Source: a virus. Taken from it: a DNA stretch of 43,420 nucleotides. Position 1 is the stretch's first letter. Each line of letters starts with the position of its first letter. The position numbers and the translations under genes are program-made. Positions 32,726 to 35,700 of the stretch are shown here, one piece after another. Under the pieces are notes generated by a model, which worked only from the letters and a program-made list of their open reading frames with translations, had not been told where the DNA came from and made no database searches. The DNA is taken from UHGV virus genome UHGV-1685692; one strand, given 5' to 3'.

Positions 32726-35700
32726 ATGGAAAGAAAAAACGCCAATATTGACGATGTTATAAGGACAGTTGAAACCGCCAGCGCGAAAGAGCTGGAAGAG
32801 CTTGCAGGTATTCGGGAAGCTGTTGAAGATTTGAAAGGGGAACGAGTTGCAACTGTTGATCCTGTCTCTCGCAGTGTGTCGGCATTAAATCGCACAATCG
32901 AAAATTCACGTCCTGACTTTGTGACCAATGTGCCATCAGTGGACTCTATTGTTGACGCAATGAAACGGCTTAATTTAGGGGACGTTTCTCGTATACGGGA
33001 GGACAAAGTCACTAACCGTGAACAGCAGGCTGCACCAACAGCGCACAATCCCCCAAATAGACGAAGAGAGGCAATAACAGAGGATGTTAAAGCACAGCGG
33101 TTAGAAACGGTCAAACTCGCTCGTGATTTGAAAGGGGAACGCGTTGCAACGGTTGACCCAGTATCTCGCAGTGTGTCGGCATTAAATCGAACAATCGAAA
33201 ATTCCCGGCCAGACTTTGTGGCCAATGCGCCATCAGTAGACCCTATTGTTGACGCAATGAAACGGCTTAATTTAGGGGACGTTTCTCGTGTAGTTCAGGA
33301 GGGCATTGCTCAACAGGAACAGCAGGCCAAATCAACTACACCAAAGGGTAAAAAAAGACGCAGGAAGGCTATATCAGAGGATATAAAGGCACAACGGACC
33401 GAAGCAGCCGAACACGCTCGCGAAATGTTCGATCAAAAAGGCGGTGCGCAAAAAAGCCAAAACCAACGCGATGCGCGTGGTCGTTTTATTGGAAAGTCAG
33501 GGAGTAAGGCCGCAGCGGAAGATGCCCGTGCTGAACGTGCTGAAAAGGCCAGGCGCAAAGAGGATGATGAGCGTCTAAATGCTGAATCAGGTTTATTAAA
33601 AAAACTGTCAAAAGTAGCTGAAGGCATAGGTAACCCTTCAGAGACTCGTGCCGTCGATGCGTTAGGTTATGCCGTTGCTGGTCCATTGTGGGCAGCAGGG
33701 AAGGAGCTTGGCGGGATATCAAAAGAAGTTGGTGGATCGCTTAATGGTGCCAGAAAGTCTATTGCCGATGTGATTCGTGGCAATGACGATAACAGCCGTA
33801 GAAAAGGTTTTTTTAGGCGTAAATCGCAAAATAGTGCCGATGTCGTTCAGGTTAACACCCAAAAACGGACGGTTCAGGAACTTCAGGAGCAGACCAGCGA
33901 AATTAAAGAGGGCAATGACAAGATTCTCAGCGCCCTTGATCAGATAGCCAAAAACACCGGGAAAAAGAAGGGCGGCTTGCTGTCCAAACTATTTAGCCTG
34001 TTAGGGAAGGGGGCCGGTGGCGTCGCGTCGTTGTTAATGGGGCGTGGCATGCTGAAAAAAGCTGGAGCACTCGCTTTTGGCGCTCTGGGGGCAAAGAAAC
34101 TTTTAGGAATGCTACGCGGTGGTGGCAAGAAGACTATCGCCCATGAAGGTGGAGATTTGGCTGCCCGGGCAGCAGGTAAATTTGGATTAAAGGCAGTTGG
34201 TAAAGGGGCGTTACGCGCAATTCCCTTAGTCGGCACAGTGGCTGGAGGTATTTATGATGCGGTAACCGGTTGGAATGATACAGAAGCGCAACGTCGAGCG
34301 TTTGGGCTTAAATCAGGACAAGATCCATCATTCCAGCAAAAAGCCGCTTATACGTTAGCCAATGTTCTTGATATGGGGGGACTGGTATCTGGTATTAGCA
34401 GCGCCATTGGTGAGGTTCTCAAATCACTTGGATTTGAGGATATCGGCAATATGTTGCAATCATTTTCGACGGAAAGTATTGCCCAGGCCATTGATAGTGG
34501 GATTACCAACTTAGAAACATATATTTCTAACCTTGGCGACACCATTTCTACCAAGTTCGAAGATTACACAGCAAAGATTGGTGATGCTGTTTCAGCATGG
34601 TTTAGCGATACATCTAATAAGCTGCTTGAAAAGCTGGATGCCATCAAAGACTTCTTTACTGTTGATAACCTGAAACAGGTTTTCAGTGATGCAATTGATA
34701 GTGCAATTGATTTCATTAAGAACCCAGGGAAACACATTAAAGAGGCGGCTGGTAATATTTGGGATGGGGTTAAAAATTTACCTGGTAAAGCATTAGATGC
34801 AGCGGTTGATGCCGTTAAAAATACCCCTGCGGCAATGATTGTATCAAAAATACCCAATCCGATCGGCGAGGCTAATGCGAAAGAAATCACTCCAGAGTTA
34901 AAAGCTCCGGTTAATAGCGAGGCTAATGCGAAAGAAATCGCTCCAGAGTTAAAAGCTCCGGTTAATAGCCACCAGGAGACATCTGATTCTAAAACTGAAT
35001 CCGATGCCAAACAGACTAATATTGTTACCCGCGTGATAAATGCGGCACTGGACACGGCGAAAGATAGCAATAAAACAGTTAAAGAAACTGCGAATCAGAT
35101 TATCAATGCAAATGCCGTAGAAACGGGCAATAGCGCGTTGCAGAAAATTGATAAAGCTATTGGTCAAAATAGCTCGTCATCATCGTCGCTTAATACCACT
35201 GGCACCAGGAATGACATTCAGAAAGCTGCGGATACCTACAACAATGGCCGCTTGGATGTAAAAGTCGGAAGTCTTGGATCTGAAGGTAAGGCAAATCTCG
35301 ATAAGTTGGCTCCGTATTTTGCTGAACTAGAGAATAAATATGGTCTTCCAGAAGGCACTCTTTACGCGATTGCTGCAACTGAATCTGGTGGTAATCCGTA
35401 TGCAAAATCCCAAACCGGTGCTCTGGGAATGTTTCAGTTCACGGGGATTGCTCGTGAAGAGACTGGCTTAGCTGAAGGTGAATCGTTTGATCCTGTGAAA
35501 TCGGCAGAAGCTGCGGCTCTTCTCATGAGCAAGTATCTGAAGCAAGCCAATGGAGACTTAAACGAGGCCATCACTGCATATAACGCTGGGTTTGGCACTA
35601 TCAATAAGTGGAAAAAAGGCACAGGTGACTTATCGAAAGAAAACCGTGAGTACGCGATCAAGGTCAATACTCATCGTGCTCGCTATTTAGGTGGTGAAAT

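Follow-up and report, generated by a model that had tools for sequence, protein, structure and literature searches.

The sit gene and its two repeat arrays

The virus genome UHGV-1685692 (hereafter the window, meaning the whole 43,420-nt stretch analysed, to whose positions all coordinates refer) carries on its plus strand a gene identified here as sit, the tape-measure / structural injection transglycosylase gene of P1-like phages, and two tandem repeat arrays are found inside it (Table 1). The large array (2 x 297 bp, 32828-33421) lies near the N-terminus of Sit, from which the repeats begin 34 residues away, while the small one (2 x 51 bp, 34866-34967) is placed in the linker ahead of the SLT domain, and both are in frame with the gene (297 = 99 x 3 and 51 = 17 x 3). 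By Tandem Repeats Finder, the large array has a period of 297 bp and 1.9 copies at 32828-33397 (81% matches, score 777) and the small one a period of 51 bp and 2.0 copies at 34866-34969 (98% matches); a second repeat search returned identical registers for both. The two in-frame tandem copies of about 99 codons that a first-pass annotation had described in the N-terminal part of sit are thereby recovered, with limits displaced by 2-3 bases from those it had proposed (32831-33423 for the large array and 34868-34969 for the small one). On translation, the two 51-bp units yield the very peptide that it had read, EANAKEI(T/A)PELKAPVNS. A chance origin of the repeats was ruled out by comparing the best 150-nt window at periods of 30-400, which gives 137 matches in sit vs at most 68 in 20 codon-shuffled versions.

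Aligned without gaps, the large units A and B share 234 of 297 nucleotides (79%; 63 positions differ) and 72% of their amino acids, although this identity is unevenly distributed. The unit heads (first 165 nt, 55 aa) are about 92% identical at the nucleotide level and agree at 52 of 55 residues, whereas the unit tails (last 132 nt, 44 aa), equal in length, share 62% of their nucleotides and about 43% of their amino acids, with a common motif RRR(E/K)AI(T/S)ED(V/I)KAQR. The identity of about 85% that had been given for the large copies is thus correct for their first 212 nt (84%) and too high for the whole unit, and the description of the repeats as near-identical suits the small pair (50/51) but does not extend throughout the large copies, because their last 44 codons are deeply diverged. 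In comparison with the tails of single-unit phages, tail B reaches 90-93% nucleotide identity, against only 62% with tail A.

Table 1. Repeats, domain and neighbouring genes of the sit region (window positions)
Feature	Coordinates	Strand	Basis or remark
sit, tape-measure / structural injection transglycosylase gene, 1246 aa	32726..36466	+	Open reading frame (ORF) listing, translation
Large repeat unit A, 99 codons	32828..33124	+	Tandem Repeats Finder, alignment; absent from P1, P7, SJ46, JL22
Head A	32828-32992	+	Part of unit A
Tail A	32993-33124	+	Part of unit A
Large repeat unit B, 99 codons	33125..33421	+	Alignment; counterpart of the single unit of P1, P7, SJ46
Head B	33125-33289	+	Part of unit B
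Tail B	33290-33421	+	Part of unit B
Small repeat unit 1, 17 codons, EANAKEITPELKAPVNS	34866..34916	+	Tandem Repeats Finder, translation
Small repeat unit 2, EANAKEIAPELKAPVNS	34917..34967	+	50/51 identical to unit 1; absent from P1, P7, JL22, phi456
SLT lytic transglycosylase domain of Sit, aa 864-973	35315..35644	+	Pfam PF01464, E = 1.9e-27
tub, annotated tail tube; tube initiator in P1 cryo-EM work	31137..31748	+	ORF, P1 annotation, PMC12810830
pmgB, directly 5' of sit; literature-proposed tape-measure chaperone	31763..32644	+	ORF, P1 annotation, PMC9024508
pmgA, baseplate wedge gene, overlaps the sit stop codon	36466..36822	+	ORF, P1 annotation, PMC9024508

The window element is a P1-like (Punavirus) phage-plasmid and its 1246-aa ORF the Sit orthologue. 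In every stretch compared, the window is 100% identical to the plasmid p1_025943 of E. coli WCHEC025943 (NZ_CP027199.1), and its Sit protein has an exact match in NCBI (AVU68513.1). The gene shares 96-98% nucleotide identity with its counterparts in JL22, P7, RCS47, and P1 (for JL22, P7, and P1, outside the repeats); in 19 phage records, the match extends over at least 80% of sit, identity reaching 95-99% in 18 of the 21 matching records, and the Sit protein alignment to relatives is collinear apart from repeat indels. A comparison of the window ORFs with the P1 annotation gives the same gene order, pmgC-tub-pmgB-sit-pmgA-bplA-16 (30560-31126, 31137-31748, 31763-32644, 32726-36466, 36463/6-36822, 36819-38252, and 38249-39088, respectively), in which sit, the longest tail gene, stands between the tail tube/chaperone genes and the baseplate genes.

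In P1, Sit (P1_gp037, YP_006507.1, 1140 aa) is annotated as a putative tail ruler / structural injection transglycosylase. Gonzales et al. (2022) considered it the tape measure on account of its size, helical prediction (the N-terminal two-thirds being predicted helical), gene position, and presence in the virion, where 23 Sit peptides were recorded by mass spectrometry (PMC9024508). Besides, sit was found to be essential by CRISPRi (PMC10695390), and the P1 cryo-electron microscopy (cryo-EM) papers take Sit as the tape measure, although the protein is unresolved in the maps, where unresolved density is seen in the hub (PMC12810830). Together with the nucleotide identity of 96-98% and the P1 gene order, this literature assignment agrees with the first-pass annotation in naming the repeat-bearing gene as tape-measure/Sit. 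No sequence similarity of Sit to lambda gpH, T4 gp29, or the tape-measure protein (TMP) of TP901-1 was detected with Pfam and PHROGs.

Two antisense ORFs with TTG starts, 32698-33225 (-) and 34564-35070 (-), of 175 and 168 aa, overlap the repeat regions of sit; they are probably spurious frames of the kind often seen opposite long genes.

Unit number among relatives and the way it changes

Among the matches listed, near-identical relatives carry one to three copies of the large unit and one to four of the small one. By protein alignment, P1 (1140 aa), P7 and JL22 (both 1130 aa), and SJ46 (1137 aa) have a single 99-aa and a single 17-aa unit, whereas the large unit is present twice in the window Sit and in phi456 (1231 aa). 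Three large units are found in phage 813R1, pXH987-OQX, pEC15-3, and NZ_CP130449.1, the last with an intact sit ORF of 1340 aa. As for the small unit, pXH987-OQX has three copies and CP063718.1, in which the sit ORF (1280 aa) is intact, has four. That one array varies independently of the other is shown by a 1147-aa Sit form from the same 90% protein cluster, which combines one large with two small units. One-, two-, and three-unit alleles all form a single open frame from the same ATG, and intact sit ORFs of 1130, 1140, 1147, 1231, 1246, 1280, and 1340 aa were found; the natural sit alleles thus form a series whose intact products range in length from 1130 aa to 1340 aa or more. The comparison of unit number across relatives, which the first-pass annotation had put forward as a check on its reading, therefore gives a structure that differs among members rather than a fixed one.

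The frequency of the multi-unit alleles was estimated with diagnostic DNA queries, namely tail A for at least two large units and the 51-bp unit-unit junction for at least two small units. An 875-bp query from the 5' part of sit was unusable for unit class, one- and two-unit records both giving 85-100% coverage because a single head aligns twice. In PLSDB plasmids, tail A is present in 137 of the 479 sit-bearing records (145 places) and the 51-bp junction in 37 of them (41 places), and in complete E. coli genomes the corresponding figures are 198 of 472 (207 places) and 68 of 472 (76 places, up to 3 per genome), these collections being clinically biased and partly clonal, so that the fractions are not population frequencies. 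The surplus of tail-A places over records in the plasmids (145 vs 137) suggests that about 8 plasmid records have a second tail-A copy, which would belong to a third unit or, as in NZ_CP029117.1, to another sit locus.

The structure of the three-unit alleles is that left by repeated unequal homologous recombination. The middle unit of pXH987-OQX joins a head that is 100% identical to head B to a tail that is 100% identical to tail A, while in 813R1 and NZ_CP130449.1 the switch from B-like to A-like sequence lies further upstream, inside the head. Two different breakpoints in these hybrid middle units imply at least two independent recombination events. The view of the repeats as recombination substrates, already expressed in the first-pass annotation, is borne out by these head-B/tail-A hybrids. 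In such an exchange, head B of one molecule would cross over unequally with head A of a second molecule to create a three-unit allele, the reciprocal product being a one-unit allele with tail B; all one-unit phages carry tail B, the type expected of that product. The number of large units would thus shift through recombination between the well-conserved 165-nt heads, and the number of small units through slippage or unequal exchange of the nearly identical 51-bp units. The 51-bp pair is present on one-unit and two-unit backgrounds alike, which is consistent with recurrent slippage or unequal exchange. As for P1, its head is A-like over the first ~46 nt and then mostly B-like, a pattern that fits both an ancestral single unit and a deletion from a two-unit allele.

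Substitution rates were calculated by the Nei-Gojobori method and are rough figures, only 10-16 synonymous differences being available. Between heads A and B, dS amounts to 0.28 and dN to 0.025 (dN/dS 0.09), and both unit heads are under purifying selection. Between tails A and B, the values are 0.87 and 0.45 (dN/dS 0.51), compared with 0.14 and 0.051 (dN/dS 0.36) for the orthologous tails of the window and P1, and 0.18 and 0.084 (dN/dS 0.46) for those of the window and SJ46. Because the dS between tails A and B is close to 0.9, the large duplication is not recent: either it arose before the P1, P7, and SJ46 alleles sampled here diverged, or unit A was derived from an unsampled diverged allele. 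The 51-bp pair, with 50/51 identical positions, is young.

A wider view is provided by the distant relatives. An exhaustive HMMER search with aa 134-470 against 1.84 billion representatives returned only 18 matches, which points to a small Sit family, and a protein-word search with the N-terminal 340 aa gave mostly truncated fragments and one useful divergent relative (P0017). The full-length distant members are 30-50% identical to Sit and 1081-1367 aa long; they share the N-terminal helix, in which M1, I12, A18, S19, E22, L23, and L26 are invariant, and an RDxxGRF motif is common to them. Each has one unit head, in which an RSV motif is nearly invariant (relatives 23-47% identical), and no duplication of the N-terminal unit was found among these full-length members; the P1 group must therefore have acquired the 99-aa duplication as a derived state. 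When internal duplications were looked for by BLAST self-comparison with 60-aa fragments, P0030, P0031, P0033, P0034, and P0035 (30-36% identical) displayed duplications of their own at other positions. A C-terminal unit of ~80 aa with AEG(M/L)RHQ occurs in two or three copies in some distant Sit-like proteins, and a mid-protein segment of ~250 aa is duplicated in the 1367-aa member. Length change through internal duplication, at one position or another, recurs throughout the Sit family.

Tail length and competing explanations

In T4, the tail tube grows around the tape measure gp29, whose C-terminus is held in the hub and whose N-terminus is located at the head-proximal end by the DNA terminus (PMC12929629), and in TP901-1 in-frame deletions in the tape measure shorten the tail in a linear manner, end regions excepted (PMC5099701). 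In the same line, the tail tube of a P1-like phage would polymerise around Sit from the hub, at the C-terminus, up to the N-terminal end. Since the tube is built around the tape measure from hub to N-terminus, extra units are expected to lengthen the tail. In P1, the tail comprises 53 tube and sheath rings with a rise of 40 Å, the sheath measuring 2100 Å and the tail 2450 Å (PMC10304247). Each extra large unit would make a longer ruler, and would thereby add ~15-18 nm, or about four 40-Å rings, to tube and sheath, while the gain from a small unit would remain below one ring. Compared with a one-plus-one architecture, the window Sit is longer by 116 residues if the SLT domain is left aside, corresponding by simple arithmetic to 174 Å (4.4 rings) at 1.5 Å per residue, or to 216 Å (5.4 rings) at the P1 mean of ~1.86 Å (2120 Å / 1140 aa). 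The tail of the window phage is accordingly predicted to have ~57-58 rings instead of 53, and three-unit alleles would add ~8-10 rings. The two-unit Sit is functional, since phi456, with two large units, forms plaques (PMC10967188). By analogy with lambda, T4, and TP901-1, and if the repeat region belongs, as we infer, to the length-determining part of the protein, the repeat copy number of sit would alter tail length, a reading to which we give a probability of about 0.6.

Several points weigh against this expectation, besides the biased make-up of the census collections. Sit is now assigned as the P1 tape measure on the basis of size, position, virion presence, and essentiality rather than of length mutants, of which no report was found in the literature searched. 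Likewise, no measurement of the tail length of two- or three-unit phages was found in the literature, the phi456 paper giving micrographs without tail length (PMC10967188) and the multi-unit phages 673R5 and 813R1 being mentioned in genome-based studies only. The AlphaFold2 model of aa 1-340 (pLDDT 55, pTM 0.17) consists of helices broken by long coil, with neither a globular fold nor a continuous coiled coil, and because of this low confidence the length added per unit is uncertain. In TP901-1, the tape-measure ends contact the connector or the initiator and do not scale with length (PMC5099701), and repeats that begin so close to the N-terminus of Sit could belong to such a terminal interaction region. 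Finally, P1 needs ~1.86 Å per residue over the whole of Sit vs 1.5 Å for an alpha-helix, and simple helical arithmetic therefore does not describe the protein. Gonzales et al. had reasoned from a P1 tail of 120 nm (PMC9024508), whereas cryo-EM gives 2450 Å (PMC10304247); since the longer value requires ~1.86 Å per residue, the published argument on Sit length needs revisiting.

Some of these observations would also suit the main competing explanation, possible but in our view rather unlikely, in which the repeats are a tolerated polymorphism without effect on length and the N-terminal part of Sit is a flexible, head-proximal end piece. Such a piece would contact the tube terminator, the neck, or the DNA end, and extra copies would fold back or extend into the neck lumen. 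This is in line with the lack of a stable fold in the AlphaFold2 model, where aa 38-110 and 138-207 include much low-confidence coil, with the distance of only 34 residues between the repeats and the Sit N-terminus, and with the basic patch KGKKRRRK of tail B, which would suit DNA contact. In TP901-1, moreover, the ends of the tape measure are interaction regions rather than part of the ruler (PMC5099701), and in T4 its N-terminus meets the DNA end, the protein being compressed in the virion (PMC12929629). Alleles with one, two, and three units are frequent side by side, which would be expected of a variation with little phenotypic effect. On the other side, internal in-frame insertions and deletions in lambda H change tail length. 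In-frame indels inside T4 gp29 and the TP901-1 tape measure likewise changed tail length (PMC12929629, PMC5099701), an outcome shared by all the tape measures examined with length mutants. The dN/dS of 0.09 between the heads, a sign of strong purifying selection in either copy, also argues for a functional element, although it leaves the function unspecified.

A more radical explanation would have Sit translation start at an internal methionine (Met234, window position 33425), the repeats being mere untranslated leader DNA. It could find support in the RefSeq record NZ_CP027199.1, whose CDS starts at 17555 and encodes 1013 aa, with the first 233 residues dropped, as well as in the 996- and 1013-aa members of the Sit protein cluster. 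Yet relatives with only 23-50% identity show protein-level conservation of the first 34 residues and of the unit head, the unit lengths are exact multiples of three with the frame kept from the same ATG in all alleles, and the annotations of P1, P7, phi456, and PLSDB all use the upstream start. An internal start is thus very improbable, and it was rejected on the protein-level conservation of residues 1-233, the dN/dS of 0.09 in the head, and the preservation of the frame; no peptide-level mass-spectrometry data on the Sit N-terminus were found in the supplement of PMC9024508. Still less credible is the idea that the copy-number differences are assembly artefacts produced by collapsed or expanded repeats. 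The sit genes of 673R5, 813R1, and pXH987-OQX do contain frameshifts typical of uncorrected long-read assemblies, but the two-unit state is found in 198 independent complete genomes, intact three- and four-unit ORFs exist, the hybrid units have specific and reproducible breakpoints, and the small array, with 102 bp, is shorter than a sequencing read. With 63 differences in 297 positions, units A and B cannot be mistaken for each other by an assembler. Assembly artefacts were therefore rejected on these 63 differences, the shortness of the small array, and the agreement of hundreds of complete assemblies.

With regard to database annotation, the RefSeq/PGAP CDS of two-unit sit genes (17555-20596 in NZ_CP027199.1) encode 1013 or 996 aa and not 1246 or 1229 aa, while an older PLSDB/GenBank annotation of the NZ_CP027199.1 gene uses the upstream ATG. 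The truncated RefSeq start looks like an annotation artefact.

Should copy number indeed set tail length, near-identical P1-like phages that circulate together could differ in their tails by up to ~8-10 rings (15-20%), a standing variation maybe maintained because tails of different length suit hosts whose envelope or capsule differs in thickness. This extension is speculative, and we consider it improbable; if true, a single species of contractile-tailed phage would be shown to vary in tail length, of which few cases are documented.

Comparison with known systems and other features of the window

The closest known counterpart of the window Sit is P1 Sit, an orthologue with ~96% nucleotide identity outside the repeats, the same neighbours (pmgB upstream, pmgA and bplA downstream), and the same SLT domain, glycine-rich hydrophobic middle, and C-terminus. 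Unlike the window protein, it has one 99-aa unit, of the tail-B type, one 17-aa unit, and a 10-aa insertion in the SLT domain, the window Sit being 106 aa longer overall. Lambda gpH, T4 gp29, and the TP901-1 TMP resemble Sit as long proteins within the tail tube and in the position of their genes between tube/chaperone and baseplate/tip genes, but for them the ruler role is proven, in-frame deletions and duplications changing tail length proportionally (PMC5099701, PMC12929629, PMC3271669). A peptidoglycan-degrading motif within the tape measure, delivered at infection, is also known from T5 pb2 and the TMP of mycobacteriophage TM4 (PMC9024508), whereas in Sit, a myophage protein, this part is an SLT (family 1 lytic transglycosylase) domain, outside which the repeats are located.

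That tape measures vary in length through tandem repeats and internal duplications is well documented (PMC3271669, PMC5099701). A survey of 2026 reports tandem repeats in about half of 45,500 tape-measure proteins, and mostly homorepeats instead in the contractile-tailed morphotype (PMC13585406). As in sit, the TMP repeats of siphophages (the 11-aa units of mycobacteriophages, Belcaid 2011; TP901-1) are in-frame tandem units whose number varies between related phages, and whose duplication and loss were inferred from unit comparison. In contrast to them, the large unit of sit is far longer (99 aa), follows no simple heptad or 11-mer period, and combines a conserved head with a diverged tail; the phage, besides, is contractile-tailed. 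The sit repeats are an expected, ordinary kind of tape-measure variation, probably giving slightly different tail lengths. In a limited search of the P1 and phage-plasmid literature, no prior description of the sit repeat polymorphism was found, PMC9603915 making no mention of sit; its unit structure, frequency, and recombinant alleles in the P1 group may be new.

The interest of this polymorphism comes from P1 being a model open to genetic work, in which all 53 tail rings have been counted and for which nature supplies ready-made constructs in the sit alleles with one, two, and three units. Such an allelic series could test the function of Sit as a ruler and the number of residues per ring in an unusually long myophage tape measure, and could show whether the N-terminal end of Sit counts toward length. 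In addition, the repeats account for the unequal lengths at which Sit proteins appear in databases and expose a systematic truncation of the start of two-unit alleles in RefSeq.

Next to sit, an open frame at 32409-32714 (+), in the +1 frame, overlaps the 3' end of pmgB (31763-32644), runs 70 nt beyond its stop codon, and ends 12 nt before sit. The C-terminal peptide of this frame, ...DAERLTESYAFFLLEKLEEKLKPKR, is identical in P1, P7, SJ46, JL22, and phi456, a 38-aa ORF is annotated at this place in phi456, and a G5 run (GTATGGGGGTAT) is located at the overlap with pmgB. The frame could be a small separate gene, or a PmgB frameshift extension analogous to the G/GT tail chaperones.

Two further repeats are present elsewhere in the window. 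A 120-bp tandem repeat at 42945-43226 (+), with 2.3 copies and 93% matches, belongs to an ORF that runs off the window end and that would be, by its position, the tail-fibre gene S; in frame 2 the repeat encodes GNAATATKLQTARTIGGVSFDGSANIDLPGVNKTGNQSTT. We take this peptide to resemble a common phage tail-fibre repeat. At 13821-13897, a 21-bp direct repeat (TTGACTATACGCGATTTATTG, 3.7 copies, 82% matches) is found just upstream of an ORF with a TTG start (13943-14884, 313 aa), presumably corresponding, by its look, to iterons before a plasmid replication initiator gene.

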